Source of the DNA: Candidatus Bathyarchaeota archaeon
GTDB taxonomy: Archaea > Thermoproteota > Bathyarchaeia > Bathyarchaeales > Bathycorpusculaceae
DNA: 64,000 nucleotides
Reading direction: 5' to 3'
Assembly (NCBI GenBank): GCA_963768425.1
Contig: CAVYHV010000014.1
Location: 256,001-320,000, forward strand
Part shown: piece by piece, positions 1 to 63,813 of the stretch
Layout: the number at the start of each line of letters is the position of its first letter
Position numbering within the stretch: position 1 is the stretch's first letter
Program-made: the position numbers and the translations under genes
Notes under the pieces: generated by a model
Databases searched by the model: none
What the model was told of the DNA's origin: nothing
Seen by the model: the letters and a program-made list of their open reading frames with translations, nothing else

Positions 1-856
<856 letters not shown>

Positions 857-46332: not shown

Positions 46333-47363
46333 ATGTCTTCTGAGAAAAATCGGGCCTTATATTCTAGCGATTTCCAGTCCTACTGCAGCAACGCAAAAAA
46401 ACTTGTTGATTTTGAACTCCAAACGCTTCTGCCGGCCATCGCCAAGTTTAAGCTGCGAAAACAAATAGAGTACGCCCTACTGACCAAAGGGAAACGGCTT
46501 CGCCCCACTTTAGTTCTGTTGAGCGGGGAAAGCGCAGGCGGCAACCGAACGCAGCTTCGCAGGTTGGCGTTGGCTTTTGAGCTATTGCATTTAGCAACGC
46601 TTGTCCATGATGACATTTTGGATGAGGACACGTTCAGGCGAAATGCCCTGTCGGTTTATGCAAAATGGAGCGTTAAAGATGCTATTCTTGTGGGTGACGT
46701 TTTGGCTTCGTTTTCGCTGTCTTTGTGCAAGGGATACAGAAGGGAAATCCTCAACGTGATTATCGACACTTGCATGCAGCTTTCAGATGGCGAATACAGC
46801 GACGTAGAATTAGCCGGTGAAGAATTAAACGAAAAAGAGTACTTTGGAAAGATACAAAAGAAATGCGCAGCACTTTTCAGGGCAGCCTGCGAATGCGGAG
46901 CTCTTGCAGCCGACGGCTCATCCAGCGTGACTAGGCGTTGAGGCTTTTCGGCGAGAACTACGGTGTTGCTTACCAGATAAAAGACGACATACTGGACGCG
47001 CAGGAATGGGGGAACGATCTGCAACCCGACGTCAACAAGTTCCGAGCCACACTTCCAATAATACACGCGTACGAAACGGCTGGCAAAGAGAAGCAGGTGC
47101 GTTTCAGAAGGCTTCTTTCCGCAAAAACAACCCGGAACCTTAGTATTTTCCTAAGAGAAGTGCAGCCGTATTTTGAGAAAGGCTCCTTAAATTACTGCAC
47201 AAACCGATTAAACATGTACGTTGACAGGGCAGTTGCAAGTTTAGCGCCGTTGAAAGAAACCCGATTTAAAAGTTACCTCGTTGAGATGGCTGAGTTATTG
47301 AAGATGGAAGAACAAGAAGTCGGCATCCAAAAGATCGCTGCAGAAACCAGAAAGTTAACGTAG
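46333..47363 (+). CDS. Polyprenyl diphosphate synthase (frameshift at ~46935)
   Basis: GKRLRP, HDDILD..RR, YQIKDDILD. Confidence 0.88.
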
Positions 47364-47406
47364 AGACACTTTCTTTTTTTGTCATTTATACTGAGGATGA
47401 AAAATT

Positions 47407-48899
47407 TTGACTGGGAAGCTGCAGTTAGCTGGTGAAATTTATTCGGATGAGGCATCTTTGAAAGCCTACTCCACGGATATGAGCCACTACTCAGTTAAGC
47501 CTCAGATGGTTGCTGTCCCAGCAAACGAGCAAGACATCGCTAGGATAATCGCTTACGCAAAGCAAGAATCGATCCCTATCACCCCGCGTGGAGCAGGCTC
47601 TAACCAATCAGGCTCCGCCGTCGGACCAGGCATTATTGTTCTCTTCTCCAAAATGAACGCTATTGTTAAAAGGAATGGGCGTAGGGTTCGGGTTCAATCT
47701 GGCGTAATCCACAAGTTCTTGACCAGCAACTTGCCGCGGACGGGCTAAGGATCCCTTATGACCCCACGTCCCGTGGGTTTTGCACCATAGGCGGAAACGT
47801 CGCAACCAAGGCAAGCGGGGTCAGAAGCCTCAAATATGGGACGGTTGACTCGGCGCTAAGAAGCCTACGTTTCTTTGACGTCGCCCACGGGTTAATTGAT
47901 ACTCAAGGTCGCCTGCCCGAAACCGTTGAAGAAGCCATCGCTGACCTTAAGAAACGTCTTATTAGCGATAAAGAAGCGATGAGCGTCCTAAACGCTCGAG
48001 GCAACCTCAAATCCAGCAGCGGCTACAACCTGCGAAGCCTCATCCAATACCAAGAGCCAAACGAAATCGTGACCCATCTAATGGCTGGCTCGGTTGGTAC
48101 GCTGGGGGTTTTCAGCGAAGTAGAGTTGGAAGCAGTTCCCTTTCCCGAAAGCCGCATACTCTACATCGCCTTTTTCCGTTCCTTGACGGAAGCAGCCGAA
48201 GATGTGAAAAAGCTCATGGCAATCAAACCCTCAGCTGTCGAGCTCATGGATTCTTACGGAGTTGATTTGCTAAGAAAAACCAATGAAGTCAACGTTCCCC
48301 TTGATTGCAAGGCTGTTCTGTTTGTGGAATTAGATTCTGACTTAGAACAAACGAGTATTGCTATGATGAGTTATTTGAAGGAGAAACCACTGGAATTCTC
48401 GGTTGAAACTGATCCGAAAAAGCAAGCTGCGCTTTGGATGGTGAGGGAGTCGATGCTTCTTTGGATTATGAACTCGCTGGAAACGGCGCAAAAAAGGTTT
48501 CCGCCCTTTGCAGACGATATAGCTATACCAGTGCAGCAACTACCGAACTTCATAGCCGCCGTTCAACAGATATTGGATAGTTTTGGGACTATTGCAGTGA
48601 TTTACGGGCACGCAGGCGAAGGAAACCTACACATAAGGCCAATGATTAGCATTGAGAATTGGGAAGAAAACCTAAAAAAATTATCCAGCCTCATCTTCGA
48701 CGCAGCCCTAAAGGCAGGTGGAACCATAACGGCTGAGCATGGACTAGGAAGAAACAGGTCATTGTATCTTCGCAATGAGTGGGGAGACAAAATCTACCGC
48801 TATTTCTCAGAAGTAAAGAGGATTTTTGACCCCACAGGACTCTTAAATCCGGACGTGGTTTTCACGTCGGATGATCTAACAAAAAACCTCAAGTTGTAG
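47407..48899 (+). CDS. FAD-linked oxidase, GlcD/D-lactate dehydrogenase-like (frameshift at ~47715)
   Basis: PRGAGS, TIGGNVAT.ASG, GHAGEGNLH, AEHGLG. Confidence 0.88.
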
Positions 48900-49087
48900 C
48901 CTTCCGCAAACGACACGGGTGTAGTGTGGCAACTACAACAAACCCTTTTATCGCTTGCTAAGCTCCTTTTTGAATGGTGTTTCCATGCGTTCTTATGAAG
49001 AAGTAGGCTACTGTAAGAGTTCCCTGAAGTCACACACCCTTTCAGACCCACAAACTCACCAATCTAAGCGACCAGGGGCTGAATAAA

Positions 49088-50311
49088 ATGGCAACCCAAG
49101 CACAAAAAACCGCGCCATCAACCACTAAAGACACTGGACTACGCGGAGTCCTCATCGCCGACACGGCAATCTCGCTTATCGACGGAGTAAAAGGCGAGCT
49201 TTCCTATCGAGGATTCGACATACATGATTTAGCTGCTTACTCAACCAGTGAAGAAGTCGCTTATCTGCTATTAAACGGCAACTTGCCAACAACGGCGCAG
49301 ATTGAAGAATTCTCAAAGACCCTTGTAACGGAAAGAAAACTGCCACCAAGCTTAGTTGAAGTTCTCAAAAAACTTCCCAGCTCAGCAGCACCTATGGATG
49401 TTCTGCAGGGAACAGTGGCTTTGCTTGCTGATTTTGACCCCGAAAAGCATGATGACTCAAAAGAGGCTAACCTGAAGCGTGCATCTCGACTAATAGCTGT
49501 GTTACCCACAGTGGTTGCGTTTTGGGATAGAATCAGAAAAAACCAGCCCCCTATCGAGCCGAACTCGAAGCTGAATAGGGCTGCGAATTTCCTGTACATG
49601 CTCTCAGGCAATGAGCCAGAGGAGGAGACAGCTAAGGATTTTGACACCTCGTTGGTCTTGCATGCTGAACACTCGTTTAATGCCTCTACTTTTGCCGCAA
49701 GGGTTGTGGCTTCAACGCGGGCTCACATGTACGCCGCAGTCAGCGCTGCCGTCGGGTCGCTTTCAGGCGAATTGCACGGCGGAGCGAACATGCAGGTTAT
49801 GAGGAACCTCGTTGAAATCGACGATCCAGCCAAAGTTGAAGCTTGGGTTAAAGCGAAATTTGACAACCATGAACGCATCATGGGCATGGGTCACGCAGTG
49901 TACAAAGCCTTAGACCCCAGAGCTGATTTGCTTCGGCACATCTCCGAGAAACTTGCGCGGCGAACAGGCGAACCGAAATGGTACCTAATGACTAAAGAAA
50001 TCGAATTTAACACTCAACGCGAGTACCGAGTGCGCAAAGGCGGCGAAATCTACCCTAACGTAGACCTATACAGCGCCTCCGTCTACCATATGCTCGGCAT
50101 CCCTGATGACTTGTTCACACCCATCTTTGCTGTAGCAAGAGTCCCAGGATGGGCAGCACACATTATCGAAGAAAAGTTTCCTGCGCCGCCGATTAAGCCT
50201 GAACTTTACCGCCCCAGCGCACAATACGAAGGCAACTACTGTGGAGCTGTAGGCTGCAAATACGAACCCATGGCTAAACGGGCAACAGAAAGCCAACAAC
50301 AAACAAAGTGA
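49088..50311 (+). CDS. Citrate / 2-methylcitrate synthase
   Basis: HAEHSFNAST, LHGGAN, GMGHAVY, YPNVD. Confidence 0.95.
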   Translation: MATQAQKTAPSTTKDTGLRGVLIADTAISLIDGVKGELSYRGFDIHDLAAYSTSEEVAYLLLNGNLPTTAQIEEFSKTLVTERKLPPSLVEVLKKLPSSAAPMDVLQGTVALLADFDPEKHDDSKEANLKRASRLIAVLPTVVAFWDRIRKNQPPIEPNSKLNRAANFLYMLSGNEPEEETAKDFDTSLVLHAEHSFNASTFAARVVASTRAHMYAAVSAAVGSLSGELHGGANMQVMRNLVEIDDPAKVEAWVKAKFDNHERIMGMGHAVYKALDPRADLLRHISEKLARRTGEPKWYLMTKEIEFNTQREYRVRKGGEIYPNVDLYSASVYHMLGIPDDLFTPIFAVARVPGWAAHIIEEKFPAPPIKPELYRPSAQYEGNYCGAVGCKYEPMAKRATESQQQTK

Positions 50312-50341
50312 CCAAAAAGTTTTCGCGCAGAGAGAAAGATG

Positions 50342-51076
50342 CTATCCAGAGGCACTGTTTTTTGGCCGCAGCTCATCCATGATTCTTTTTCTAATTTCCA
50401 TGATATGCTTTGTAACCTGAATAGATTTAGGGCAAACCACCGTGCATCGATAGTAAGATTTGCAGCTCCATGCACCATGCGGCTTATCCATAATTTGCAG
50501 GCGTTCAAGCATGTCTTTGATGCGGCTGTCAAAAATGTATCTGTGCGCCCTAACGATGGCGGCTGGCCCTACATAGCTGGGATCTTCTTTCTGGCTGACA
50601 GGGCAAGCAGAGACGCAACAGGCGCACATAATGCATTTGATGTCATCGTCAAACTGCGATCGCTCCTCAACCGTCTGCCGATGCTCTTTGCCTTCTTCTG
50701 CTGCCGTCAAGCTTATCCCCTGGGACGAGTGAACAGATTTTTCCTTCGCAAAAAACTCGTCCAAGTCCACCACTAAATCTTTCACGACGGGAAACACGCT
50801 AAGAGGCTCAATCAGGATTTCTTTGTCAACTGGATAGTCTTTCACAAGTTTTTGGCATGCCAAAGCTGAAACCCCATTGATCGTCATGCCGTCGGAACCG
50901 CAGATACCATGGGCGCAACTCATTCGGTAAGCTAAGCTTCCATCTTGTTCCCATCGAACCTTATTGAGGCAGTCAAGAAGCCTATCTGTTGATTTGGCGT
51001 CAACAACGAATAAGTCGTAACGTGGTTCTTTGTCAGCTTTAGGGTCGAACCGGAAGATTTTCAACTTGACGTTCAT
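50342..51076 (-). CDS. sdhB: Succinate dehydrogenase/fumarate reductase Fe-S subunit
   Basis: SCAHGICGSD, CIMCACCVSACP, C...YRCTVVCP. Confidence 0.93.
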   Translation of the reverse strand: MNVKLKIFRFDPKADKEPRYDLFVVDAKSTDRLLDCLNKVRWEQDGSLAYRMSCAHGICGSDGMTINGVSALACQKLVKDYPVDKEILIEPLSVFPVVKDLVVDLDEFFAKEKSVHSSQGISLTAAEEGKEHRQTVEERSQFDDDIKCIMCACCVSACPVSQKEDPSYVGPAAIVRAHRYIFDSRIKDMLERLQIMDKPHGAWSCKSYYRCTVVCPKSIQVTKHIMEIRKRIMDELRPKNSASG

Positions 51077-51077
51077 G

Positions 51078-52803
51078 CTAGTACTTCCTCGCTTTAGGTT
51101 CAAAACGAGTAATACTCACGGGTTTATACCGAGCTTCGAGTCCGTTGGCAGTGTGGAATATGAGTGAGTGCTTAAGCCAGACTTCGTCGTTGCGGCTGGG
51201 AAAGTCGTTGCGGAAGTGAGCTCCTCGGCTTTCTTCACGTTTCAGTGCAGAATAAACGATTACTTTTGAAAGCTTCAGCATATTATCGAGCTCAAGCGCT
51301 CCCTCAAGCTCATAGTTGAAAGATTTGCCACGGTAGCTGAGACCAAGATTAGCCGCTCTACCTTGAAGTCCCTGGATCCTGCTTAGAGCCTGCTCTAACC
51401 CCACTTTGTCGCGGAAAACGCTGCATAAGTGAGTCATCACTTTCTCCATTTCCACGCGTATCTCGGCAACACGTTCCTTTCCAGTAGAAGCCAGAAGGGA
51501 ATCTATTCTTGAAAAAACCATTTGCTCAGCATCTGCGTCAAGAGGGGTTTGAGAGGTTTCGCCGACATAATTCGCAATGTGCAGTCCGGCCCGTTTTCCG
51601 AAAACAACCAGATCAACCAACGAATTTGTTCCAAGCCTGTTGGCTCCATGAACACTTACGCATGCACATTCACCCGCCGCATACAACCCAGGAATGACAG
51701 CGGATTTTTCATCTGCAAGGACGCGTGCTTGAGCGTCAGTGGGGATGCCGCCCATCATGTAGTGACAGGTTGGCGCAACAGGAATCGGCGATTCGCTAGC
51801 GTCTATACCTAAGTAGGTCTTGACGAACGATGTGACCTCCGAGAGTTTCTGCTGCAACTGATCTTTGCCAAGATGCGTTAAATCCAAGTAAACGTAGTCT
51901 GAGCCTTCGATACCTCTGCCTTCGGCGACTTCGGTTAAAATGGCTCTGGAAATGATGTCTCTTGGCGCCAGGTCCTTCAGCGACGGCGCGTAACGTTCCA
52001 TAAACCGCTCGCCCTTGCCGTTACGCAACACGCCGCCTTCAGCTCGAGCCGCTTCGCTGACCAAGATGCCTAAACCGTGAATCCCAGTTGGATGGAATTG
52101 AACGAACTCCATATCTTCAAGCGGAACCCCCGCTTCAAAAGCCAAAGCGAAGCCATCTCCCGTAGCGGCAAAAGACATAGAAGTCGTTTGAAAGATTCTG
52201 CCGCAGCCCCCCGTAGCTAACAAAACTGCTTTCGCATGAAAAACCACCGATTCGCCCGTCGCCAACTCGTATCCCGAAACGCCGCAGCATCGTCCTTAAG
52301 GCATCAGAAGCGAGGTAACAAAGACTTCGTTGAATATTTTTACGCCTCGAACCATGCAGTGGTCGTAGAGCGTGTCCATAATAACGCGCCCCGTCCTGTC
52401 AGATGCATAGCAAGCCCTCTTCACAGGCGCCTCCCCGAAGTTTCTGGTGTGCCCTCCAAATCGTCGCTGCTCAATTGTTCCTTTCTCGTTGCGGCTGAAG
52501 GGTACGCCAAGATGCTCCAGCTCAATCACTCTCTCAGGGGCTTCCCGAGCCAGAATTTCAGCCATATCCTGGTCTGCCAAGTAGTCGCTTCCTTTCACTG
52601 TGTCAAACATGTGCCATTCCCAGTGGTCTTCCTCCTCATTTCCAAGAGCCGCCGCAATACCGCCTTGAGCCGCTCCACTGTGACTTCGAGAAGCATACAC
52701 CTTGCTGATGACAGCTACGTTGCAGGTTTCTGACGCCGTCAAGGGCAGCAGTCATGCCAGCAATGCCTGCGCCAACGATCACCACATCAAATTCATGAAT
52801 CAT
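51078..52803 (-). CDS. sdhA: Succinate dehydrogenase flavoprotein (frameshift at ~52743, in-frame TAA at 52296-52298)
   Basis: GAGIAG, RSHSGAAQGG, QFHPTG, HYMMGG, VHGANRLG, ESRGAH. Confidence 0.9.
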
Positions 52804-53923
52804 GCCTTTTTCCGTCCTGTTCACTGAAGAATAGGATATCCCGGTTGACTTCTGAGAGCGAGTCGCAACTTGTCATAACCATAGCCATCCGCAAATCACT
52901 CTTCACATAGTTGATGTACATTGCCACAGCTTCGGGTCCGCCTGCAAGGCTCATCCACGCAAGTGGTCTTCCAATCAACGCCACATCCGCTCCCAACGCC
53001 AGAAGCTTAAGAACATCGAAACCTGTTCTTACCGCGCCATCAGCCATTATAGTGATTTTGCCTTTGAACTTGTCAACGATTTCCGGCAGGACCTCCGCTA
53101 CGCCTTTTCCGCAATCCATTACTCTGCCGCCGTGGTTACTGACATCAAGCGCTTTTGCTCCGGAATCAGCCACTTTGCCCGCGTCCTCCACATTCATGAT
53201 GCCCTTGAAGATGACGGGTTTTTCTGTGGCGTCGACTAGTTCTTTGAGATCACTTTCGCTTTTACGGTAAAGTGGCTTGCCTCTCAGCGCCCAGTTAGTT
53301 GAGCCGTAGCCATCTAAGTCAACGCCGATAGCTAATACGTCGGCATCTTCACAACGCTTAAACAGATTTAGAAGACGCTCTTGCGACTGCGGTTTGAAAA
53401 CAGGGATGCCCCAGCCGCCGATCCCGCCAATAACATCTATCCCAGGATGGTCAGGTGCATCAACGGTGTTTCCGCTTAACCCGATGGTGCCTGCCTGCTT
53501 AGCGCCTTCCACCATGCCACGCTGGAATTCCTCTTCACTCAACGCGTTATTCATGCTTATCAGTGTCCCGCTTATGCTTGTCGCCAACACGGGTAAAGAA
53601 ATGCGGTTACCCAGAAAAGTTGTTTCTAATTTTGGTTCGCGATGCTCTTTGATGACTTGCATCTTGAGCGTGTATCGTGAAAGAGCTTGAAAGTTTGCGC
53701 TCCAAGTTTTGCCCTGACCTGCGCCTCCGAAACCGATGGGTTTCCCGTACTTCATTCCTTGGCAAAGCCTATCAGGGTCTCCATCGCACACTTTGTTTAC
53801 AGCGCAGACCTTCGAGAGTTGTTTTCTGGCGATGTCCCGATAGTAGGATATGTCTTTTAGAGGTTTTTCATTTGTCGATGGATAGTGTTCTTTCGTATTT
53901 TTCCCTTGCAGATATGAATTCAT
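52793..53923 (-). CDS. FMN-dependent alpha-hydroxy-acid dehydrogenase family protein
   Basis: KGIM, VSNHGGR, DGAVRTG.DV, GRP; N-terminal Cys cluster. Confidence 0.9.
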   Translation of the reverse strand: MNSYLQGKNTKEHYPSTNEKPLKDISYYRDIARKQLSKVCAVNKVCDGDPDRLCQGMKYGKPIGFGGAGQGKTWSANFQALSRYTLKMQVIKEHREPKLETTFLGNRISLPVLATSISGTLISMNNALSEEEFQRGMVEGAKQAGTIGLSGNTVDAPDHPGIDVIGGIGGWGIPVFKPQSQERLLNLFKRCEDADVLAIGVDLDGYGSTNWALRGKPLYRKSESDLKELVDATEKPVIFKGIMNVEDAGKVADSGAKALDVSNHGGRVMDCGKGVAEVLPEIVDKFKGKITIMADGAVRTGFDVLKLLALGADVALIGRPLAWMSLAGGPEAVAMYINYVKSDLRMAMVMTSCDSLSEVNRDILFFSEQDGKRHDS

Positions 53924-54090
53924 TGTTCATTTATTTCTTTCAGGTTGCCTTTCCAGTGCCCGCAGACCGGGCATCGCCAAGTTTGAGGAATTCCCTCCAA
54001 TTTCATGCTTGGCGGCAGCTCTGCTACTAAGTCGCCTTTTTCATCATCAAACGTAAAGCTCCTGCAGAACTCACACATAAACTTCAACAA
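53920..54090 (-). CDS. Rubredoxin
   Basis: CEFC...D...GD......P..W.CPVCG. Confidence 0.8.
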   Translation of the reverse strand: MLKFMCEFCRSFTFDDEKGDLVAELPPSMKLEGIPQTWRCPVCGHWKGNLKEINEQ

Positions 54091-54266
54091 TAACACCGAG
54101 CAAAACTGATTTTGGGTCACTGTGCCCTGATTAATTCCAAGTTTATCGTTTCTAAAAAACTTTTGCAACTCAGCGGTAAGAGCACTATCCTTTGGAAACC
54201 CTTAAATCGTTGCCTCAAACCCATTGTTAATGATGATGTTTTTCATCTTTTTCTTAAAAAGAAGGC

Positions 54267-55124
54267 TTGTTTATGAATGGAAAGGATTTTGCTTTTGATT
54301 TTGTAAAAATTGATATGCCACCTGAGAGACCGAGAAACTCTGGTATAATAGAGTTTAGAGGACCGTACTATAACTCGGTCAGTTACGGCTTCTTGAAAGA
54401 TTTGCTTGATGATTGGTCGTTTTACGTTGACGGGTTCAAGTTTGCCGGCGGCTCGATGAGGCTACTTCCTAGGGCAAGAGTACGCCAAATTATTGGGGCA
54501 TGCCATGAGCATGGGCTTTATGTTTCCACCGGGGGATTTGTTGAGCGGGTAATTGTTCAAGGAAGCGAAACAGTTGACAACTATCTTGATGAATGTAGGC
54601 AGTTGGGGTTTGACGTTGTCGAAGTTTCAAGCGGTCTTGCACCGATTTCTCTGGAAGACAAACTGAAGATTATGAGCCAGGTTCAAAAGTTAGGCATGAA
54701 GCCTAAACCCGAGGTTACAATGATGATTGGGGCAGGTGCGGGCACACACATCGCTGGGTACGAGGCAGGCATGAAGCTGCGAAGCTTTGACGAGTTCTCA
54801 GAAGAAGTATCGACCCACCTCAAAGCAGGCGCAGAAATGATAATGATAGAATCCGAAGGTTTAACCGAAGATTTGCCGCCTGAACAATGGAAAACTGATG
54901 TCATCAAGAAAATCGTAGACAAGTTCGGAACCAAAAATCTGATGTTTGAAGCTGCGGATCCTCCGGTGTTCAAGTGGTACCTCAAAAACTTCGGCAAAGA
55001 CGTGAATTTGTTTATCGATTACTCGCAGATAGTCGAGTTCACCGCTTGGAAAACTAAGCTTTGGGGAGACCCTGAAATCTGGTTGGGAAAACCCGTTAAA
55101 TATAATAAGAACAAAAATCGATAA
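54267..55124 (+). CDS. Phosphosulfolactate synthase (ComA)/HSA32-like protein
   Basis: PR..G..EFRGPYY, KFAGGS, VSTGG..E, MIESEG, MFEA. Confidence 0.88.
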   Translation: MFMNGKDFAFDFVKIDMPPERPRNSGIIEFRGPYYNSVSYGFLKDLLDDWSFYVDGFKFAGGSMRLLPRARVRQIIGACHEHGLYVSTGGFVERVIVQGSETVDNYLDECRQLGFDVVEVSSGLAPISLEDKLKIMSQVQKLGMKPKPEVTMMIGAGAGTHIAGYEAGMKLRSFDEFSEEVSTHLKAGAEMIMIESEGLTEDLPPEQWKTDVIKKIVDKFGTKNLMFEAADPPVFKWYLKNFGKDVNLFIDYSQIVEFTAWKTKLWGDPEIWLGKPVKYNKNKNR

Positions 55125-55195: not shown

Positions 55196-56560
55196 CTAAG
55201 TGAAGACCAAATTCTCCGTCAACTTTCGAGCATCAATATTCTCCAGATGTGCCACCGCGTCCATAATTTCCTTTTTTCTCGCCTCTTCAACGAACATAGA
55301 GACAAGGGATGAAAACTTCTCAGTTGCATCGGCCCAGCTCATCGGCCGCGTTAAGAACCCTTCATAATCGTCAACCGCTTTGGTTAGGGTTTTCCCGTTT
55401 TTTAGGCGGATTGTTATTTCACAGGGCATGGCGTTTGGAAATCTCTTGCTTAACTCAGATGAAGGGACAATCTGGACCTTCTTTAAGAGAGCCTGCACAT
55501 CGCTCCTCATTACTCTTTGGGGCAAATATTGCTCCGGGGTAACCTTGCCATCGATTAAGGCAGCTGAGAGAATATATGGGAGACTATGATCTGCTTCCTC
55601 TTTCGTTCGGACCAGCTTTTTTTCGCCCTCTTCGCCGCCCCCAATAATCTTGTAAGCAACATCGAAAATGCGCACGTCAATTGAATCTGCATCTTGAACT
55701 CTGAGACCCTGCTTTCTTAACGATAGAATGCAATCTATAGCGGATTGGGAATGTATTTCAGCATTGTATTTCTTCAGAATGGTGCGGTTCACTGCCTCAA
55801 GGTTCTCTTTTTTCCAGTCAATCTCGAAGCGCCCGGCAATAGAATCCATGAAGCCTTTGTTGCCTTCAAAAACTTCCAGCGGACCAGTGATTCCCTCGCT
55901 GGCCAGAAAAGTGGCGTGTAAAGCACAGGAAGCCATGAATGGGTATGCGATGCCTTTCCAGTTGGAGAGTTTCCCGGTTCTTGTGACACGAAGTGCGTTC
56001 AAGGATGTACCGCTGATGGCGATGGAGTTAGCGGTTTTGGCGGTGTCAAGCCTCAACGCTTTGGATACGCCCGCAGCTACAGCGTAGGCTCCCTGAGTCA
56101 CATGGTCAAAGCCTTTGTCTCTTACAGGTGCAACCTCGCTTAAACGGCATTGAACCTGATAAGCCACAGCCAAAGCAACCAAAAATTCTTTCCCCGATGC
56201 ACCAGCATACTCTGAAGCAGCCAGAACTGAAGCGAGATTGTCGCTTGGGTGACATGTTTCTCCTTTTGAGAGGAAACTGTCGTTAAAATCTAGGTACCTA
56301 ACTAGCGTGCTATTTATCAGGGTAGCGCGATCCGGAGCGGTTTTGGCTCCACCTATCAAAGTGCACAGAGGCAGTCCCCCGAACTCGCTTTCGACCTTAC
56401 GTATGGACTTTACAGGTTGGCTTTGCAATGCTCCTATGGCGCAACCAAACGAATCAAGAACCCTGATTTTTAGCTGCTCAACGGCTTTGCTTGACAGGTC
56501 CTCAAACCTGGACGCATGCACAAATTCAGCAAGTCCTTCAACACATGTCAATTGTAACAA
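55196..56560 (-). CDS. MmgE/PrpD family protein
   Basis: RYLDFND, CHPSDN, DH, WKG, ADHSLPY. Confidence 0.92.
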   Translation of the reverse strand: MLQLTCVEGLAEFVHASRFEDLSSKAVEQLKIRVLDSFGCAIGALQSQPVKSIRKVESEFGGLPLCTLIGGAKTAPDRATLINSTLVRYLDFNDSFLSKGETCHPSDNLASVLAASEYAGASGKEFLVALAVAYQVQCRLSEVAPVRDKGFDHVTQGAYAVAAGVSKALRLDTAKTANSIAISGTSLNALRVTRTGKLSNWKGIAYPFMASCALHATFLASEGITGPLEVFEGNKGFMDSIAGRFEIDWKKENLEAVNRTILKKYNAEIHSQSAIDCILSLRKQGLRVQDADSIDVRIFDVAYKIIGGGEEGEKKLVRTKEEADHSLPYILSAALIDGKVTPEQYLPQRVMRSDVQALLKKVQIVPSSELSKRFPNAMPCEITIRLKNGKTLTKAVDDYEGFLTRPMSWADATEKFSSLVSMFVEEARKKEIMDAVAHLENIDARKLTENLVFT

Positions 56561-56674: not shown

Positions 56675-57838
56675 GTGATTATTTTGAATTTAACAGAGTA
56701 CGAAGCAAAACAAGTTTTCTTCAATTATGGTATTCCGATTCCGAAAGGAACTTTAATTTCTGAATCCAAGCAAACCAAAGATAACATGAACAGTTTAAAG
56801 CCGCCATACATGGTTAAAGCGCAAGTTCCAGCAGGTGGAAGGGGAAAAGCTGGAGGAATTATATCTGTTTCATCAGTACACGAGGCAGAACAAGCCGCTG
56901 CCAAACTTCTTGGAACACAAATCAAGAACCTTCTTGTAAAGCAAGTCCTAATCGAGGAAAAGCTCCCGGTAAAAAAGGAGTTGTATCTGGGAATCACAGT
57001 TGACCGCTTTAACCGTTGTTATGTTGCCTTGGCTTCTGCGGTGGGTGGCGTGGAAATCGAGGAAGTCGCCGAGAAAACTCCCGAAGCAATCTTCAGAGAC
57101 AGGGTGGATTCTCAGCTGGGCATGCCTTCTTTTCAGGCATTAGCGATCGCGAAACAATTAGGTTATAGCGGCAGCCAGCTCTTAGAATTAGTAACTGTTA
57201 TTCAGAAACTTTTTCGAGCGTGTGTTGAAAGCGACGCTGAAACGACGGAGATTAATCCTTTGGTGGAAACGGTAGCGGGAGGTTTTGTGGCTGCTGACGC
57301 TCGCATGGTTATTGATGATAATGCCCTGTTTAGGCATCCAGAGTATGAGGCAAAGCAAGTTCAATCGCTCTCGCCTGACGATACTTTAGCTTTGAAACAC
57401 AGTTTAGCTTACGTTAAACTTGACGGCGACATAGGCGTTGTCGGCAACGGCGCTGGGTTGGTTATGGCAACGCTTGATTTGTTGATTTTTTTCGGTGGCA
57501 AACCAGCAAATTTCTTAGATGTAGGCGGCGGAGCAAGCACGGAAGCAATCACTGCGGCTTTAGTAATAGTTCTTGGTGACTCAGCTACAAAAGCCGTTTT
57601 AGTCAACGTTCTGGGTGGAATAACGCGTTGTGACGATGTAGCAAGAGGCATAGTTGAAGCTATCAAAGAAACTAATTCAAAGAAGCCAGTGGTTGTTAGG
57701 CTTGTTGGCACGAACCAGCTGGAAGGACAAAAAATTCTCATCGACACTGGAATATCCGTTTTGGGCAGCATGGAGGAAGCAGCAAAGCTGGCAGTTGCGT
57801 ATGCGGCGGAGGGAAGCGGTAATGGGGATTTTGGTTGA
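56675..57838 (+). CDS. sucC: Succinyl-CoA synthetase beta subunit
   Basis: KAQV..GGRGKAGG, EINPL, GNGAGL.MATLD, NFLDVGGG. Confidence 0.95.
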   Translation: MIILNLTEYEAKQVFFNYGIPIPKGTLISESKQTKDNMNSLKPPYMVKAQVPAGGRGKAGGIISVSSVHEAEQAAAKLLGTQIKNLLVKQVLIEEKLPVKKELYLGITVDRFNRCYVALASAVGGVEIEEVAEKTPEAIFRDRVDSQLGMPSFQALAIAKQLGYSGSQLLELVTVIQKLFRACVESDAETTEINPLVETVAGGFVAADARMVIDDNALFRHPEYEAKQVQSLSPDDTLALKHSLAYVKLDGDIGVVGNGAGLVMATLDLLIFFGGKPANFLDVGGGASTEAITAALVIVLGDSATKAVLVNVLGGITRCDDVARGIVEAIKETNSKKPVVVRLVGTNQLEGQKILIDTGISVLGSMEEAAKLAVAYAAEGSGNGDFG

Positions 57839-58718
57839 TTCTGGAACGAGAGCGATTGTTCAAGGCGCAACGGGCAAACAGGGCAGCTACCAAACTAGGC
57901 TAATGCTTGACTATGGCACGAAAATTGTGGCAGGAGTTGTGCCTGGCAAAGGCGGAACATTGGTAAACGGATTGCCCGTTTTTGATACAGTAAGTGAAAC
58001 AGTCGATGCCTATTCTCCCAATGCCTCAATAATTTTTGTGCCAGCGCCATTTGCGAAAGACGCTGTTTTGGAAGCAGCCGCCAGCAAAATCGAAACAGTC
58101 GTAGTAATCACTGAACATCTGCCAATAAGAGACACTATTAGCAGCTTAGGATACGCGGCTCATTCGAATGTCACGGTTGTTGGTCCGAACACGCCGGGAA
58201 TCATTACGCCCGGTGAATGCAAACTTGGAATAATGCCAGCAGACGTTTTTGCACCGGGAAGTATTGGTCTTGTTTCGAGAAGCGGAACTTTAACCTACGA
58301 AATAGCAGCCAGTCTCACAGCCAATGGTTTGGGTCAGTCGACCTGCCTTGGCGTCGGTGGCGACCCCGTCGTGGGCTTAAACTTCATTGACGCATTAGAA
58401 CTATTCAAAGCTGACCCGAAAACGAAAGCGGTGGTTTTAATCGGTGAAATCGGCGGGAACATGGAAGAGCTGACAGCAGAATATATCGCCCAGACGCGTT
58501 ACCCTAAGCCGGTTGTGGCTTACGTGGCCGGTCGCTTTGCGCCTGAAGGCAAGAGGATGGGTCACGCGGGAGCTATAATTACTGGAAAACAGGGAACGGC
58601 TCAAAGCAAGATTGACGCCTTTTTAAGTTCGGGTGTTAAGGTTGCTGAGAAGCCAAGCGACGTTGCAGCCATTTTGGCAACAGAAGTTGAGACACAAAAA
58701 CAAGTTGCCGATAGCTGA
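57822..58718 (+). CDS. sucD: Succinyl-CoA synthetase alpha subunit
   Basis: QGATGK, GPNTPG, SRSGTLTYE, RMGHAGA. Confidence 0.95.
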   Translation: MGILVDSGTRAIVQGATGKQGSYQTRLMLDYGTKIVAGVVPGKGGTLVNGLPVFDTVSETVDAYSPNASIIFVPAPFAKDAVLEAAASKIETVVVITEHLPIRDTISSLGYAAHSNVTVVGPNTPGIITPGECKLGIMPADVFAPGSIGLVSRSGTLTYEIAASLTANGLGQSTCLGVGGDPVVGLNFIDALELFKADPKTKAVVLIGEIGGNMEELTAEYIAQTRYPKPVVAYVAGRFAPEGKRMGHAGAIITGKQGTAQSKIDAFLSSGVKVAEKPSDVAAILATEVETQKQVADS

Positions 58719-58829: not shown

Positions 58830-59786
58830 ATGAGCCAGAATAACCCGAAAAAATTTAGTGCTGAAGACCTTAAGCAATTCGATGGGTCAAATGGAAAACC
58901 ATTGTATGTTGTTTTCAAGGGAAAAGTTTACGACCTTACAACCAGCCCGCTTTGGCTTCAGGGTACGCACATGGGCATGCATAACAAAAATGACGACTTA
59001 ACTGAAGCAATAAAAACTGCCCCACATACTGAGGATAACGTTTTCAGATTCCCGTATGTTGGAGAAATAGCCGAGCCCGTTTTGAAGGCGCCACCGCCTC
59101 TTCCACTTGAAGAGCAAAAGCCTGTCCAACTACAGGTGCAGTCCCCACCGAACGCTGCGGGAGTCATGGAGAGGCGTACTTTCCTGAAACTTGCAGCTGC
59201 GACTGGGGGAGCAATCACTATAGCCGCGTTGCTTTCAACTTTGAAGGCAGGAACATTTGTGCCCCCTCCAACCACAACGACAGCGTGGCCAATAGTCACT
59301 GTTACAAACCTAAGCAAACTGACAAACCTCGTGCCGGTTGTGTTTTATTACCCATTAACCAGCACTCCGAACTACCTTGTAAAACTGGGCGTGGCCGCCA
59401 CAGGCGGCATCGGACCAGAAAATGACATCGTGGCTTTCAGCGCGATTTGTCAACATTTAGGATGCGAATATGGCTTTGTTGCTCCAGGTGGCTCACCTCC
59501 CTGCAACTCAGGGTACAAGGCAGTTATGCCCATGGGCTACTGCTGTTGTCACGGTTCACAGTACGATTTCGTTCACGGCGCGAAAGTAATTGGCGGTCCA
59601 GCTCCACGACCTGTTCCTATGGTTCAACTGCAACTGGATACAACTACAGGAGACATAAGCGCGGTTGGGATGCAGCCGCCGACGATTTTTGGGCACGGTC
59701 CGCCGGGAACTACGAATCCAGCGTCGGTGATGCAATATGATTTACAAGGTGGAGATTTAGTGACGCAATCCACAGTTTTGGGATGA
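58830..59786 (+). CDS. Cytochrome b5-like domain fused to a Tat-type Rieske [2Fe-2S] protein
   Basis: FDG..GKP.YV...GKVYD.T...W..G.H...H; RRTFLK + TM; CQHLGC and CCCHGSQY. Confidence 0.88.
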   Translation: MSQNNPKKFSAEDLKQFDGSNGKPLYVVFKGKVYDLTTSPLWLQGTHMGMHNKNDDLTEAIKTAPHTEDNVFRFPYVGEIAEPVLKAPPPLPLEEQKPVQLQVQSPPNAAGVMERRTFLKLAAATGGAITIAALLSTLKAGTFVPPPTTTTAWPIVTVTNLSKLTNLVPVVFYYPLTSTPNYLVKLGVAATGGIGPENDIVAFSAICQHLGCEYGFVAPGGSPPCNSGYKAVMPMGYCCCHGSQYDFVHGAKVIGGPAPRPVPMVQLQLDTTTGDISAVGMQPPTIFGHGPPGTTNPASVMQYDLQGGDLVTQSTVLG

Positions 59787-61325
59787 ATGAGCATGACTGA
59801 ACAAACTGAGCCCGCCAAAAAGACCGCTTACGACAAGCTTGTCGACTGGTTTGACGTGAAGTTCGGCTTCGCCAAAGCGCCGCTAAAGCCGATTCCAGAC
59901 TTCACTATGAACCCGATTTACTGGCTCGGCTTGCTATTAGCTGTGACTTTCGGCTTACAGGCGCTAACAGGAATCTTCATGCTTCTCTACTATGTGCCTA
60001 CACCTGCCCAAGCCTACTCGTCGACGGCATCTATAATCAGTTCCGTGCCTCTTGGTTCGCTTGTTGAAACCTTTCACCTGTACACAGCCTACGCCATGAT
60101 TATCTTGACATTTCTCCACCTCACCCGCAACTTTTTCGGCAGCGCTCACAAAGGGAACAGGGATTTAATGTGGCTTGTCGGAGTCATTTTGGCTGTAGTA
60201 GTCGTTAGCTTCGGGGTGACAGGGTATCTTTTACCGTGGACAGTGATTTCAAAGTCGGCAAGCGACGTCGCCATTGGATTTCTCAACTTCTTCCCCGTTG
60301 GCTTAGCAAACCTTGGAAAATTCGTTGCGGTAGGCTCAGGCAGCGACGCATCAGAGTTGACAACGTTCCTTCACATTCACACCGTTTTCCTTCCGCTAGC
60401 GCTCATTGGACTTTTGGGGTTGAAGATTTACATGTATGAAGTGCATGGCCCAATCTACGTGTCAGCTTACGGAAAACCGGGAAAAGGCAAGTACTACAAC
60501 TGGTTCCCGAAGATCTTCCTCTACTTCGTCATGCTCGCAAGCGCCTACGTAGCGATACTGCTGGCTGCATCTTCCCTTTTCCCTCTGGTTTTGCCACCAG
60601 CATATTCCGCAGCAACCGCCGGCGCATATGTCGTCCAGCCTGACTGGTATCTGCTATGGGTTTACCAACTCTTGAAAATCCAGATTTTTGAAGGACCAGC
60701 CGCGGCTTACGTGATAGCCGCTCTAATTGCTTTTGGAGTACTTCTTTTCCTCATGCCTTTCTACGACAGAAGCAAACGCAGAAACATAAGTCAAAGACCA
60801 GTCTATACCACTATCGGCGCCGTGCTGATAATTGAGCTCATAACTCTAACCATATGGGGCTATCTGACTCCTGGGCGAATAATTCCGGATTACCAAGCCC
60901 TGCTTGTTTTAGGCGGAGTAGCTGTGGCAACTATCGCTGCGCTTTGGGCGGTTTATCGACTACGACGAAAAACAAACACAGCAACTGTCCTGCCGACACA
61001 ATCTACAGCAAACCCACTCTTGACCAGCCCGCTCATGACGACACCATCCATCGCAAACCATTCCCCAAAGAGGGCTGCCCAGTCGAAAAAACAACTTGTA
61101 AAGCGTGCAGGCCAAAACTTGTTTAATTCGTTCACCGCTGTTTTCGCCGTTTTCCTGGCTGTTGCATCAGTTTCACTGGCGTCAGCCGTAAACATGTTAC
61201 CTAACGTTTTACCAAATGCGCCCTTCTTCGTGTTAGCTTTGTCTGCTTTTGTCGTTTCGGCGTTTTTCATGAGTCGGATGCTACGAAAGTTTGTGTTAGC
61301 GTATAACGGAGCAGTGACTAAATGA
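59787..61325 (+). CDS. Cytochrome b (b6 + subunit IV fused) of a Rieske/cytb complex
   Basis: LQALTG..., H..H in helix B, TGYLLPW, QPDWY (PEWY-like). Confidence 0.92.
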   Translation: MSMTEQTEPAKKTAYDKLVDWFDVKFGFAKAPLKPIPDFTMNPIYWLGLLLAVTFGLQALTGIFMLLYYVPTPAQAYSSTASIISSVPLGSLVETFHLYTAYAMIILTFLHLTRNFFGSAHKGNRDLMWLVGVILAVVVVSFGVTGYLLPWTVISKSASDVAIGFLNFFPVGLANLGKFVAVGSGSDASELTTFLHIHTVFLPLALIGLLGLKIYMYEVHGPIYVSAYGKPGKGKYYNWFPKIFLYFVMLASAYVAILLAASSLFPLVLPPAYSAATAGAYVVQPDWYLLWVYQLLKIQIFEGPAAAYVIAALIAFGVLLFLMPFYDRSKRRNISQRPVYTTIGAVLIIELITLTIWGYLTPGRIIPDYQALLVLGGVAVATIAALWAVYRLRRKTNTATVLPTQSTANPLLTSPLMTTPSIANHSPKRAAQSKKQLVKRAGQNLFNSFTAVFAVFLAVASVSLASAVNMLPNVLPNAPFFVLALSAFVVSAFFMSRMLRKFVLAYNGAVTK

Positions 61326-61978
61326 TGAAGGACAACTTTGACTCTTTGCGCGTCACCGCCTATTTCCTATTGGCTTTCCTGGCAATTGTCGGAGTTGCAG
61401 TTTGGCTTCTAAACCTGATAACTCAATGGAGAGTCTTCGGTTTCTTGATGAGCGCAGAATTCACCGCATTCGCAATGCTCGTCTACCTTTTCTATATGGA
61501 AGACCCGGTTGCAGCCAAGAAAATATTAACCTCCGGGTTCGTTGCCCTAGGAATCCTAATTATTTTGGCAGGCGCCGTTTTAGCTGGTGCTGGGACACCG
61601 GTGACGCTGCCTAAGCCCAATGTTTCAGTCACTCTTTACGCTGGCGAGGTTTCCTCCAACTTGTTCGGATTCGGAAACAGCGCAACTTCCATAACTTCGC
61701 CTGGTCCAACCTTAACGTTCACGGTGGGCGACGTCGTAAACATGACTGTTTTCAACGCGGGAACAATGCCTCATAACTGGGCGCTAGTCGCCTCAAACGA
61801 TACTTCAGGCAAAGTTCTTTTCGGCGCACAAATCGACAGCGGCCAAGTTCCCATACCCGTCAACGAATCAGCATCGGTTGTTTTCAGAGTCACAAAAGCT
61901 GGGAATTACTACTACATTTGTCAGGTTGCGGGTCACGTACAGTTAGGTATGTGGGGCAGTGTGATAGCGAATCCGTGA
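61322..61978 (+). CDS. Membrane-anchored cupredoxin (type-1 Cu)
   Basis: Three TM helices; HNW and YICQVAGHVQLGM. Confidence 0.88.
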   Translation: MMKDNFDSLRVTAYFLLAFLAIVGVAVWLLNLITQWRVFGFLMSAEFTAFAMLVYLFYMEDPVAAKKILTSGFVALGILIILAGAVLAGAGTPVTLPKPNVSVTLYAGEVSSNLFGFGNSATSITSPGPTLTFTVGDVVNMTVFNAGTMPHNWALVASNDTSGKVLFGAQIDSGQVPIPVNESASVVFRVTKAGNYYYICQVAGHVQLGMWGSVIANP

Positions 61979-62778
61979 CACAAAAAACCGCTGAAAAACT
62001 TTATGCTTCATGCCTCTTTTTCCTCGCAAGTTTACTTACGGGCCTGGTAAGCTTGGTCGCGTTAGGTTTTGTGTTTGCAAAGCAAAAAACCGAAAAGACA
62101 CATGAACCTAAAAAAGCAAAGGGTTTCCTTGCAGATGAGCATAAAGCACTGAATTTTTACAGAGTATTCTCTGTTGCCTACGACACTTTGAACCCGTACT
62201 TGTACACCGACGCCATGCGCAGCGAGATGGTAAATCAAATCCCAAACGGCGCAAACCTGCGGGTGCTCGACGTTGGATGCGGAACAGGCTACACCACATC
62301 AGGAGTTTTGAAGCGAGGAGACGTTTCAGAAATGGTTGCGTTGGACATGAACCCTGTGCAGCTCAAAAGAGCCGTCAAAAATCTGCGCCCGGAAAAGGTC
62401 AGGACTTTTATTTCAAGAGGCGACGCGGACAACTTGCCGTTTGCAGACTACTCTTTTGATGCGGTGATTTCTGTTGGAGCTATCGAGTATTTTCCTGATC
62501 CTGAGAAAACAATTATGGAGTTTGCAAGAGTCATAAAATCCAGCGGAACCGTTATTGTTGGCGGACCTGAATTGGGTTGGTTCAGCAAGCTGGCTTTAAA
62601 CAGGGTTTTTTACACGCCTTCCGTCCGAGAAATGGAGACTTTTTTTCGCAAAGCAGATCTTGTCAGGGTGAAATCCAGCCTTACAGGTATGAAAACTTTT
62701 TTCGGAACAAGCAAGTATGTTGTTTTTGCCGTTGGAAAGAAGCCGAGTCGACTGAGGATTAACGGGAAGACTAGGTAG
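61918..62778 (+). CDS. UbiE/MenG-like methyltransferase (start uncertain)
   Basis: YD.LN, LDVGCGTG, GDA..LPF.D.SFD; next to menA-like gene. Confidence 0.8.
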   Translation: MSGCGSRTVRYVGQCDSESVTQKTAEKLYASCLFFLASLLTGLVSLVALGFVFAKQKTEKTHEPKKAKGFLADEHKALNFYRVFSVAYDTLNPYLYTDAMRSEMVNQIPNGANLRVLDVGCGTGYTTSGVLKRGDVSEMVALDMNPVQLKRAVKNLRPEKVRTFISRGDADNLPFADYSFDAVISVGAIEYFPDPEKTIMEFARVIKSSGTVIVGGPELGWFSKLALNRVFYTPSVREMETFFRKADLVRVKSSLTGMKTFFGTSKYVVFAVGKKPSRLRINGKTR

Positions 62779-62781
62779 GGT

Positions 62782-63813
62782 TTAAGGTTTTTTTCTTGAA
62801 CTAAGCAAAGCCCAAGCCACAGGAGCATATGCAATGGCCAGCATTGCCAAGATGAAGACGAGTTGAAACGGGTTAGCTTTGTTCAATGTGCCCGCGACTG
62901 AGTAACCCGCGATTAAACCGAAGGCGGTCACGCTGTGAGCCACTATCATGTCAAGGTTGGCTGGTGCCATCAATCTCGGATTGTCATTATGTATCCTAAC
63001 GACCCTAATGGAGTGGATTACGAGAGGCAGGGAAAGCAAAGCGACTAGAGTGTAGAGCGGTATGAAGCCGAGCAAGGCAGAAGCGACGATTATCGAGTAT
63101 GTGCATATCCAGCTTGCTATGTACAGTTTGATCCCTGCCTGTTTGCCGTACCTTGCGACAAGCGTGAGTTTCCCAGCAGCTGTGTCCTCCTTTATGTCAG
63201 GAATCTCATTAATCACAATCATTGAAAACAGCATAACTCCTAAAGGCAACGTCGCCAAAAAAGCCTGCAACGTTATGGTTTGCGCTTGAACATAAAAGGC
63301 GCCTAAACCGATGATTGAGCCGAAATTCACCAGCATTGCAAGCTCGCCTAGCCCGTGGTGGCCAAAGCTTATCGGCGGAGCGGTATAGAAAACAGCACAA
63401 AACACACCGAATATTCCAAATGCCAAGATAGGCAAGCCTCGTGTTAAGGTGAGGTAGAAGCCGACAATCAAAGTGACGAGGTAGCACAGGGTGAATGCCT
63501 TAAACATGCTCCTAGGCGTCAAGAGTCCGCTGCTAAGAGTAGCGCTGCCGCCTGAATACGGGTTCTTCTCACCTGGTGCAAGCTTGTCCACACTGTGTTT
63601 ATAGTCGAAATAATCGTCGGTCATGTTTAAACCGATGTGATTAATAATTATGGCGACGAGAACAAGAAGGAAATACAGTGGAGTAAAACCGCTGTTAGTA
63701 GCCCAACTGACTAAGCCGCCCAAAACGGCGGGGAAGATACTGGGAGGCACAAAGTGGTAACGGAACGCTCGCCACCACACTTTCGCTTTACTGATTTGAT
63801 CTGTGCTTGACAT
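62782..63813 (-). CDS. MenA/UbiA-family prenyltransferase
   Basis: NMTDDYFD, YTAPP, GLGE, NEIPD..ED...GK.TL. Confidence 0.88.
   Translation of the reverse strand: MSSTDQISKAKVWWRAFRYHFVPPSIFPAVLGGLVSWATNSGFTPLYFLLVLVAIIINHIGLNMTDDYFDYKHSVDKLAPGEKNPYSGGSATLSSGLLTPRSMFKAFTLCYLVTLIVGFYLTLTRGLPILAFGIFGVFCAVFYTAPPISFGHHGLGELAMLVNFGSIIGLGAFYVQAQTITLQAFLATLPLGVMLFSMIVINEIPDIKEDTAAGKLTLVARYGKQAGIKLYIASWICTYSIIVASALLGFIPLYTLVALLSLPLVIHSIRVVRIHNDNPRLMAPANLDMIVAHSVTAFGLIAGYSVAGTLNKANPFQLVFILAMLAIAYAPVAWALLSSRKKP

Follow-up and report, generated by a model that had tools for sequence, protein, structure and literature searches.

A probable bioenergetic region of two nested gene pieces, optional within its genus, in a Wood-Ljungdahl-bearing Bathyarchaeia genome

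The window analysed here is a 64,000-nucleotide stretch of a Candidatus Bathyarchaeota archaeon assembly (G000:C14:256001-320000, G000 being the source assembly: 2,958,400 bases, or 2.96 Mb, in 33 contigs, with a completeness of 91.29% and a contamination of 4.75%). At 46333-63813 lies a 17.5-kb cluster that combines genes for a Rieske protein, a cytochrome b, a blue-copper protein and quinone-finishing enzymes with genes of central carbon metabolism (Table 1). Genes were identified from a listing of open reading frames (ORFs) and from Pfam and NCBIfam profile searches, each match being judged against the cut-off of its model. By these means we confirmed every gene type named in a first-pass annotation, which had been made from the sequence alone. 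This annotation had overlooked a PrpD/MmgE-family gene, a ComA-family gene, a rubredoxin gene and a cytochrome b5-like domain on the Rieske protein, as well as the interruption of the polyprenyl synthase, GlcD-like and SdhA genes in the assembly; of the 16 cluster genes, the remaining 13 show no interruption. Among the enzymes of the cluster, the prenyl synthase is the only one with a second copy in G000 (a paralogue on contig C10, 54% identical), and the citrate synthase at 49088-50311 is the sole copy of the genome. Both borders consist of archaeal housekeeping genes, namely L31e, a DNA-binding protein (PF01984) and S19e upstream, and YhbY/CRS1, RNase P Rpr2 and RmlD downstream, just beyond the end of the window.

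The cluster is made of two nested pieces. Its core is a clade-specific quinone/Rieske/cytochrome b module that comprises the prenyl-diphosphate synthase, Rieske, cytochrome b, cupredoxin, methyltransferase and MenA-like genes. Inserted between the synthase and the Rieske gene is an 11.3-kb central-carbon block (47407-58718), common to the closest kin of G000, which codes for the GlcD-like and the flavin mononucleotide (FMN)-dependent dehydrogenases, rubredoxin, citrate synthase, SdhAB, the PrpD-like and ComA-like proteins, and SucCD. Comparing synteny by tblastn, we found the module at the same site in G016, G412, G004 and G377. The order in G412 is S19e-synthase-Rieske-cytochrome b-cupredoxin-methyltransferase-MenA-YhbY, and G016 differs from it by the absence of the synthase and the presence of a ferredoxin gene. 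G004 has the same genes, with MenA and the methyltransferase 10.5 kb apart and other genes in between, while G377 keeps the full order of G000, save for the FMN dehydrogenase, which has no match in its copy of the cluster and was seen on contigs from a close relative. Of the six loci compared for the position of the central-carbon block, only those of G000 and G377 have it inside the module. G003 shows an empty site, with a gap of 998 bases from S19e to YhbY, and in G030 these two genes are separated by 5.4 kb of other DNA. In G402, which belongs to another genus of the family, SdhBA adjoins a synthase-Rieske-cytochrome b-cupredoxin-methyltransferase array, and in G016, G412, G556 and G517 SdhA and citrate synthase lie near the oxidase and not near cytochrome b. 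SdhA of the G000 type (at least 77% identical) occurs in 12 genomes and citrate synthase of the G000 type (at least 81%) in 11, mostly cytochrome b-positive ones.

The cluster is accessory within the genus. Searching the full genus, we found a cytochrome b of the cluster type in 14 of 119 congeners; a first draw had given 2 of 36 congeners and, from elsewhere in the order, none of 24 genomes. In a draw from the whole class, matches of at least 64% identity were confined to family f1 (7 of 103 genomes), and identity follows taxonomic distance, from 72-95% within the genus to 64-73% in other genera of the family and at most 53% elsewhere. Many cytochrome b copies were seen in family f35 of the same draw (51/74).

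Gene order around the complex was compared in 79 cytochrome b loci, 22 of the clade that includes G000 and 57 outside it, Nitrososphaeria among the latter. The order Rieske-cytochrome b-cupredoxin is kept, and the cupredoxin present, in all 22 clade loci; the methyltransferase gene adjoins the cupredoxin gene in 16 of them, and a MenA-like gene lies inside the locus likewise in 16. The synthase, the methyltransferase and MenA retain a position next to the complex throughout the clade. Outside it, no locus has a MenA gene, a cupredoxin was matched in 3/57, and a methyltransferase was matched weakly (29-36% identity) in 5/57.

Table 1. Genes of the cluster and the adjoining ferredoxin gene, with positions in the window, strand and the profile matches on which each assignment rests
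Product	Position	Strand	Evidence and remarks
2x[4Fe-4S] ferredoxin, 89 aa	45864..46133	-	Pfam Fer4 families; borderline member of the variable region
Polyprenyl diphosphate synthase	46333..47363	+	two ORFs, 46333-46941 and 46938-47363; PF00348 on both
Flavin adenine dinucleotide (FAD)-linked oxidase/dehydrogenase, GlcD- or D-2-hydroxy-acid-dehydrogenase-like	47407..48899	+	PF01565 and PF02913; best NCBIfam model glcD, below cut-off
Citrate/2-methylcitrate synthase	49088..50311	+	PF00285, 424.5 bits; TIGR01800, 437.7 (cut-off 421.3)
SdhB, succinate dehydrogenase/fumarate reductase iron-sulfur subunit	50342..51103	-	PF13085, PF13183; NF004616, 263.4 (cut-off 228)
SdhA, flavoprotein subunit	51078..52803	-	PF00890 and PF02910
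FMN-dependent alpha-hydroxy-acid dehydrogenase, LldD-like	52793..53923	-	PF01070, 187.5 bits
Rubredoxin	53920..54168	-	PF00301, 40.6 bits
ComA-family (phosphosulfolactate synthase-like) protein	54267..55124	+	PF02679, 207.3 bits; arch_ComA, 71.6, far below cut-off 280
MmgE/PrpD-family dehydratase, 2-methylcitrate dehydratase-like	55196..56560	-	PF03972 and PF19305; all PrpD models below cut-off
SucC, succinate-CoA ligase beta subunit	56675..57838	+	NF001913, 438.8 (cut-off 370)
SucD, succinate-CoA ligase alpha subunit	57654..58718 (ORF as listed)	+	TIGR01019, 403.3 (cut-off 353.2)
Rieske protein with N-terminal cytochrome b5M-like domain	58830..59786	+	PF00173 and PF00355
Cytochrome b, 512 aa, long form	59787..61325	+	PF00033, PF13631, PF00032
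Membrane-anchored type-1 cupredoxin	61322..61978	+	PF00127 and PF06525 (SoxE), just over cut-off
Membrane-anchored class I S-adenosylmethionine-dependent methyltransferase	61918..62778	+	PF08241, weak PF01209; TIGR01934 below cut-off
MenA-like polyprenyltransferase, UbiA family	62782..63813	-	PF01040; TIGR00751, 107.9 (cut-off 102.15)

The Rieske protein starts with a cytochrome b5-like domain (residues 1-96), followed by a proline-rich linker, an RRTFLK motif with a hydrophobic anchor, and the Rieske domain. Rieske [2Fe-2S] clusters are held by the boxes CxHxGC and CxCHGS, which here read CQHLGC and CCCHGS, and their residues C207, H209, C212, C238, C240 and H241 are invariant in 22 sequences. 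The same holds for R115, R116, F118, L119 and K120 of the RRTFLK motif, which precedes a hydrophobic segment at 123-142; the Tat family PF10518 scores 18.7 bits on this protein, below its cut-off of 22.7. The best solved match to the C-terminal part is SoxF (1JM1, E 5.3e-29). In the N-terminal part, the first 80 residues align without gaps with the archaeal cytochrome b5M structures 6VZ6 (E 9e-17) and 6NZX (E 1e-16), with a profile E of 5e-22, and H47 and H66 are invariant among the 22 homologues. The axial haem ligands reported for these structures are H42 and H61 (10.1101/2021.11.30.470528), to which H47 and H66 would correspond if a numbering offset of one is assumed. These solved proteins are free-standing domains of 78 residues, whereas the b5M domain of the cluster is fused ahead of the twin-arginine anchor of the Rieske protein.

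This fusion is a feature of the clade. The b5M domain is found in 20 of the 22 clade loci, the two misses being cut by contig ends, and in none of the 57 loci outside, all of which have the Rieske C-terminal part; among 120 listed Rieske homologues (57-97% identical), query coverage is 85-100%, save for one short fragment at 65%. Since it stands ahead of the twin-arginine anchor, the domain would be placed on the cytoplasmic side of the membrane. Actinobacterial QcrA also has an N-terminal part ahead of a Tat-type Rieske anchor, and QcrA chains give weak matches to the protein; however, the QcrA extension consists of transmembrane helices, in contrast to the soluble haem domain predicted here. 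A second, partial copy of the Rieske N-terminus (residues 5-163, 54% identical) adjoins the ferredoxin gene in G004 (L011:2892-3434), and G000 has free-standing b5-like paralogues on contigs C6 and C10.

In the cytochrome b, H97, H111 and H198 are invariant in the 22 clade rows of the alignment and in 57-58 of the 58 others, and the Qo motif, at residues 285-288, reads PDWY in all 22 clade rows. The best solved matches are cytochromes b6 and b, the alignment with b6 ending at residue 207. The cupredoxin has three hydrophobic N-terminal segments, followed by a copper domain with H141, C200, H205 and M210, the His, Cys, His and Met typical of type-1 copper sites; these are invariant in the 22 homologues, and PF00127 scores 24.8 against a cut-off of 21.2. 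All three proteins recall the Sulfolobus SoxM supercomplex, in which a Rieske protein (SoxF) and a cytochrome b (SoxG) work with the blue-copper protein sulfocyanin (SoxE) instead of cytochrome c: here too a Rieske/cytochrome b pair goes with a blue-copper protein, SoxF is nearest to the Rieske C-terminal part and the SoxE family passes its cut-off. The cluster differs from SoxM by its b5M domain, by the linked quinone tail genes and by the oxidase, which lies on a separate island in relatives and was not found in G000. The specific NCBIfam models for SoxC (192.3, cut-off 740), SoxL2 (68.3, cut-off 582.1) and sulfocyanin (27.9, cut-off 168.4) all remain below their cut-offs. Outside Bathyarchaeia, the nearest cytochrome b proteins are those of Nitrososphaeria (38-52% identity), which share PDWY or PEWY, K213 and H220 and have the Rieske gene directly upstream.

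The MenA-like enzyme exceeds the cut-off of one model, TIGR00751, and stays below those of nine other MenA-type models. The methyltransferase, which had been annotated as MenG-like, is indeed present, its identity as MenG being weak; we regard it as a candidate quinone C-methylase, the sole argument for this being its conserved position beside MenA. According to an earlier study, the PDWY motif goes with menaquinol and low-potential Rieske proteins (PMC4122944), so that its presence in the cytochrome b of the cluster points to a low-potential, menaquinol-type substrate. The quinone would be a low-potential one, probably of the naphthoquinone type.

In the central-carbon block, the flavoprotein and iron-sulfur subunits of a succinate:quinone oxidoreductase are both present according to Pfam and NCBIfam. 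The rubredoxin gene overlaps by 4 bases with the beginning of the FMN dehydrogenase gene, an arrangement suggestive of a dehydrogenase-rubredoxin pair; the contigs of a relative drop one base at 53886 and one at 53922. The true start of SucD probably lies near 57822, homology beginning only at residue 57 of the listed ORF.

Partners for such a chain are encoded elsewhere in the genomes of relatives. The oxidase gene COX1 is present in 46 of 119 congeners, namely in 12 of the 14 cytochrome b-positive genomes versus 34 of the 105 cytochrome b-negative ones, and the two positives that lack it are G004 (71% complete) and G561 (68%). Two kinds of COX1 exist in the genus: one, scoring ~380-453 bits, is that of all 12 oxidase-bearing cytochrome b-positive genomes, and the other, at ~257-272 bits, was seen in none but cytochrome b-negative genomes, G014 and G001 among them. 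In G555 the oxidase operon runs COX2-COX1-COX3-cupredoxin-UbiA family-cupredoxin, with an A/V-type ATP synthase operon within ~15 kb, beside a thermosome gene; the arrangement is similar in G377 and G520. Altogether this forms an island of ~35 kb (loci L057-L062), whose two cupredoxins are extra to that of the cluster, whose UbiA gene is haem O synthase-like, and which also contains a gluconate-2-dehydrogenase-subunit-3-like gene and an M48 peptidase gene. ATP synthase is found in 85/119 congeners and in 13/14 cytochrome b-positive ones, and is absent from 34/119, several of which are 95-98% complete. The haem synthesis gene ALAD is found in 69/119 and 6/14, respectively; the 50 congeners without it include the oxidase-bearing G520 (100% complete), and its absence suggests a reliance on outside haem and corrinoids.

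Bathyarchaeia are mostly modelled as fermenters or acetogens, and the first-pass annotation had described them as mostly anaerobic. The genus is not purely so, given the frequency of COX1. CdhC, a subunit of acetyl-CoA synthase, is present in G000, in 104 of 119 congeners and in 12 of the 14 cytochrome b-positive ones; the genus therefore keeps the carbonyl branch of the archaeal Wood-Ljungdahl pathway. CdhC, COX1 and a cytochrome b of the cluster type occur together in eleven genomes. Soil and peat Bathyarchaeia with an aa3-type oxidase and a proposed (micro)aerobic life have been reported from Houtuousia (PMC10321748) and Ca. Paludivitaceae (PMC11619403), and these published oxidase-bearing lineages are described as being without the archaeal Wood-Ljungdahl pathway, Houtuousia also without PFOR; G000 and most of its congeners differ from both in carrying CdhC. 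The terms "cytochrome b" and "menaquinone" are absent from the main text on Houtuousia (PMC10321748), as are "complex III" and "succinate dehydrogenase" from that on the Amazonian Ca. Paludivitaceae (PMC11619403), though the supplements of either paper may differ. The literature searched contained no description of a complex III from Bathyarchaeia, nor of a haem-copper oxidase in those of their lineages that bear the Wood-Ljungdahl pathway; such genes may be listed in supplements such as File S3 of PMC11619403 or table S8 of PMC10321748.

Taken together, these data make it likely that the 17.5-kb stretch is an optional bioenergetic region of two nested pieces in a genome that bears the Wood-Ljungdahl pathway. 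The first piece would complete a low-potential quinone by means of its prenyl-diphosphate synthase, MenA-like enzyme and membrane methyltransferase; quinol oxidation would fall to the Rieske/cytochrome b complex, from which electrons would go on to a membrane-anchored blue-copper protein replacing cytochrome c. In the second, the citrate/methylcitrate synthase, SdhAB, SucCD, the PrpD-like protein, the two hydroxy-acid dehydrogenases and rubredoxin may feed organic-acid oxidation. In relatives the chain would end at the A-type haem-copper oxidase of the second island, which the G000 assembly is without. The data show the gene identities, the conserved architecture, the distribution and the co-occurrence with the oxidase; the type of the quinone, the course of the electrons and whatever activity G000 may have are inferred. 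Within a large genus of peat and soil in which acetyl-CoA synthase is retained, a minority of species has a complete-looking aerobic chain encoded in two movable pieces, the complex III piece of which has a previously undescribed haem-domain fusion and brings its own quinone-finishing genes with no known ring pathway. The oxygen use of the group, its quinone chemistry and its dependence on neighbours for haem are now directly testable.

A bolder proposal, and on the whole an unlikely one, would be that the b5M fusion at the cytoplasmic end of the Rieske subunit makes the module a new type of Rieske/cytochrome b complex, in which a third b haem, on the inner side and close to the low-potential haem chain, exchanges electrons with soluble carriers such as the adjacent ferredoxin or rubredoxin, so that they need not all cycle through the quinone site, with a quinone head group that is scavenged or comes from a novel pathway, and with hosts that keep the oxygen-sensitive Wood-Ljungdahl pathway, about half of them living on scavenged haem.

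Several observations weigh against the bioenergetic reading, above all for G000 itself. We found no COX1, COX2, cytochrome bd, ATP synthase A/B, ALAD or molybdopterin oxidoreductase anywhere in this assembly, so that the remark of the first-pass annotation that no terminal oxidase lies in the window extends to all 2.96 Mb. The G000 thermosome gene lies in mid-contig and is followed by unrelated genes in place of the oxidase island. No match to PF01127 was found in G000 for an SdhC/D anchor, anchors of the CCG-domain type lying outside that search. MenB is over cut-off in 0/120 and MqnA/D (PF02621) present in 0/120 genomes of the genus, G000 included, and the methyltransferase fails MenG/UbiE (TIGR01934, 57.9 against 158.35). 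The lack of MenB and MqnA/D agrees with a 2024 study of the Bathy-6 group, which found no known quinone pathway there and also reported the absence of a terminal electron acceptor (PMC11697101). The SdhA gene contains an in-frame TAA at 52296-52298, where G377 has Glu; this is a substitution and not an indel, and the corrections seen in the contigs of a relative concern the indels. Lastly, a fourth canonical haem ligand is not evident in the cytochrome b (residues 213/220, window 60423-60446). Cytochrome b proteins bind two b haems through four histidines, two each in helices B and D; here each of the 80 aligned rows has Lys (K213) at +15 from H198, and an almost invariant His (H220), the next one, follows at +22. 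This is shared throughout the archaeal family as sampled and is not peculiar to the cluster. The chain as described cannot run from the G000 assembly alone: no terminal oxidase, no ALAD, no naphthoquinone-ring pathway, no ATP synthase and no SdhC/D were found in it, which for this assembly is the very outcome that the first-pass annotation had named as refuting its proposal, and any function in G000 itself is therefore putative. The first-pass proposal, hydroxy-acid and succinate oxidation via quinone to a high-potential acceptor, agrees with parts suited to quinol oxidation towards blue copper and with the gene content of relatives, whereas G000 is without the partners that it needs.

One way to account for these absences would be that the lineage of G000 has lost the oxidase/ATP synthase island, leaving a stranded cluster that is useless and starting to decay. 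Among the 11 cytochrome b-positive genomes that are at least 88% complete, G000 is alone in having neither COX1 nor ATP synthase; its syntenic island site holds other genes; ATP-synthase-less genomes are common in the genus; and SdhA has a nonsense substitution in addition to an indel. However, a single missing contig of ~35 kb in a 91%-complete bin would explain both absences, and the other flank of the island, as seen in G377, G555 and G520, was not found in G000, so that a clean deletion is not demonstrable.

The interrupted genes bear on the same question. Four lesions affect three genes: relative to G377, of the same genus, one base is missing near 46932-46935 in the prenyl synthase, whose two pieces share one frame in G377, and one near 47712-47713 in the GlcD-like gene, while SdhA has an extra base near 52740, which puts its first 21 codons (N-terminus MIHEFDVVIVGAGIAG) in another frame, besides the TAA codon. 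G377 is whole at the break points of G000 and broken elsewhere, in SucC, SdhA (codon 203/204), MenA, Rieske and RmlD. Compared with the ORFs of relatives, the cluster shows 3 frameshift-type breaks in 15.8 kb, one of which (57800) is the SucC/SucD junction and among which the N-terminal shift of SdhA was missed, versus 17 breaks in 64.3 kb elsewhere; counting in-frame stops against the stop-to-stop ORFs of relatives read through natural gene ends and was dropped as too noisy. Polysaccharide genes downstream (G000:C14:320001-340000) are split as well, a UDP-glucose dehydrogenase at 7137/7139 and a radical SAM/SPASM gene at 14397-14400, so the breaks are not special to the cluster.

Short-read contigs assembled from three DNA runs of three studies insert one base behind 46932 and one behind 47713 and omit one at 52740. 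Over 46333-52803 they differ from the window at 276 positions, with 9 gaps (~96% identity), and stem from another strain, a relative which cannot prove what the reads of G000 itself say; no sequencing run shared more than 0.23 of the sampled words. Based on the genome-wide rate, the intact sites of G377 and the correction in the contigs of this relative, the single-base indels are probably assembly errors. With a break rate no higher than elsewhere and most of its genes uninterrupted, the cluster has little of the appearance of a relic, and we hold such a decay to be quite unlikely. Split genes and missing pathways in the G000 assembly are to be read with caution and call for checks at the level of reads. 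Contigs of an RNA library (X18) contain parts of six cluster genes at 90-96% likeness, a weak hint of expression in a relative.

Another possibility, for which we see a small chance, is that the module has no need of a haem-copper oxidase and that its cupredoxin delivers electrons to a multicopper oxidase or to an extracellular acceptor such as peat organic matter. G000 does encode a 769-aa protein with all three multicopper-oxidase domains (G000:C30:42824-45133; L046:637-2946), the only oxygen-reducing candidate found in it, and the cupredoxin would be anchored in the membrane on the same side as the Rieske cluster. Yet we saw no linkage between this oxidase and the cluster, a proton gradient could drive only transport if ATP synthase is missing, and the co-occurrence in relatives points to the haem-copper oxidase.

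Whether the cluster was recently acquired from another lineage is a matter of its phylogeny and composition. The first-pass annotation had called it an acquired module, and its patchy presence (14 of 119 congeners) and the empty site of G003 do agree with mobility; moreover, its GC content is 0.480, which places it at the 98.6th percentile among 17.5-kb genome windows. A source outside the lineage is not supported by the data. In a maximum-likelihood tree of cytochrome b with 76 rows (of the 79 loci, four were left out because of stops or short matches), G000 belongs to a 20-row clade with a support of 100 and a stem of 0.88 changes per site; all rows of the clade are titled Bathyarchaeia but one with a Limnocylindrales label, and Nitrososphaeria, Korarchaeia, Thermoprotei and other Bathyarchaeia types stand on the other side of the tree. 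The b5M-Rieske fusion is likewise particular to this clade. The tetranucleotide distance of the cluster reaches only the 87th percentile of genome windows, no direct or inverted repeat of at least 10 bases is common to 45776-46332 and 63814-64113, and we found no integrase among the assigned ORFs and no tRNA at the borders. Because its cytochrome b belongs to a Bathyarchaeia-only clade, the cluster is not foreign: it is an old, optional Bathyarchaeia module, and the pattern would fit a long stay in the lineage, accompanied by numerous losses or by exchange within the family, rather than a recent import, which we consider highly improbable.

A role of the Rieske protein as arsenite oxidase small subunit, a name borne by many of its homologues in their source records, can be practically dismissed: TIGR02694 scores 77.5 bits and AioB chains rank second among solved structures, but this score is below the cut-off of 95.65, the best solved match is SoxF, G000 has no molybdopterin subunit, and the Rieske C-terminal part lies beside cytochrome b in 77 of 79 loci (cytochrome b being present in all 79 by construction). 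A chimeric or contaminated contig deserves next to no credence either, as the GC content is somewhat above the genome mean but archaeal core genes flank the cluster on either side, its junctions are found again in at least 4 further genomes of the genus, and one 7-kb contig from an independent run extends across 46333-52803.

The host is a Bathyarchaeon, as the first-pass annotation had supposed. Among the nearest cytochrome b loci with a name (61-95% identical), 20 bear the title Bathyarchaeia or Bathyarchaeota; the one exception is L081, whose record is titled Candidatus Limnocylindrales bacterium (a Chloroflexota bin) and which has a Bathyarchaeia-type b5M-Rieske protein, cytochrome b and cupredoxin together with a 92%-identical SdhA; the label is probably a binning error. 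At its first bases (1-855, minus strand) the window includes an archaeal 16S rRNA gene, truncated by the window start so that its 5' part is present. As for the ferredoxin gene upstream of the synthase, it adjoins the module in G016 and G004 too, has no match at the G412 site and is absent from the empty site of G003.

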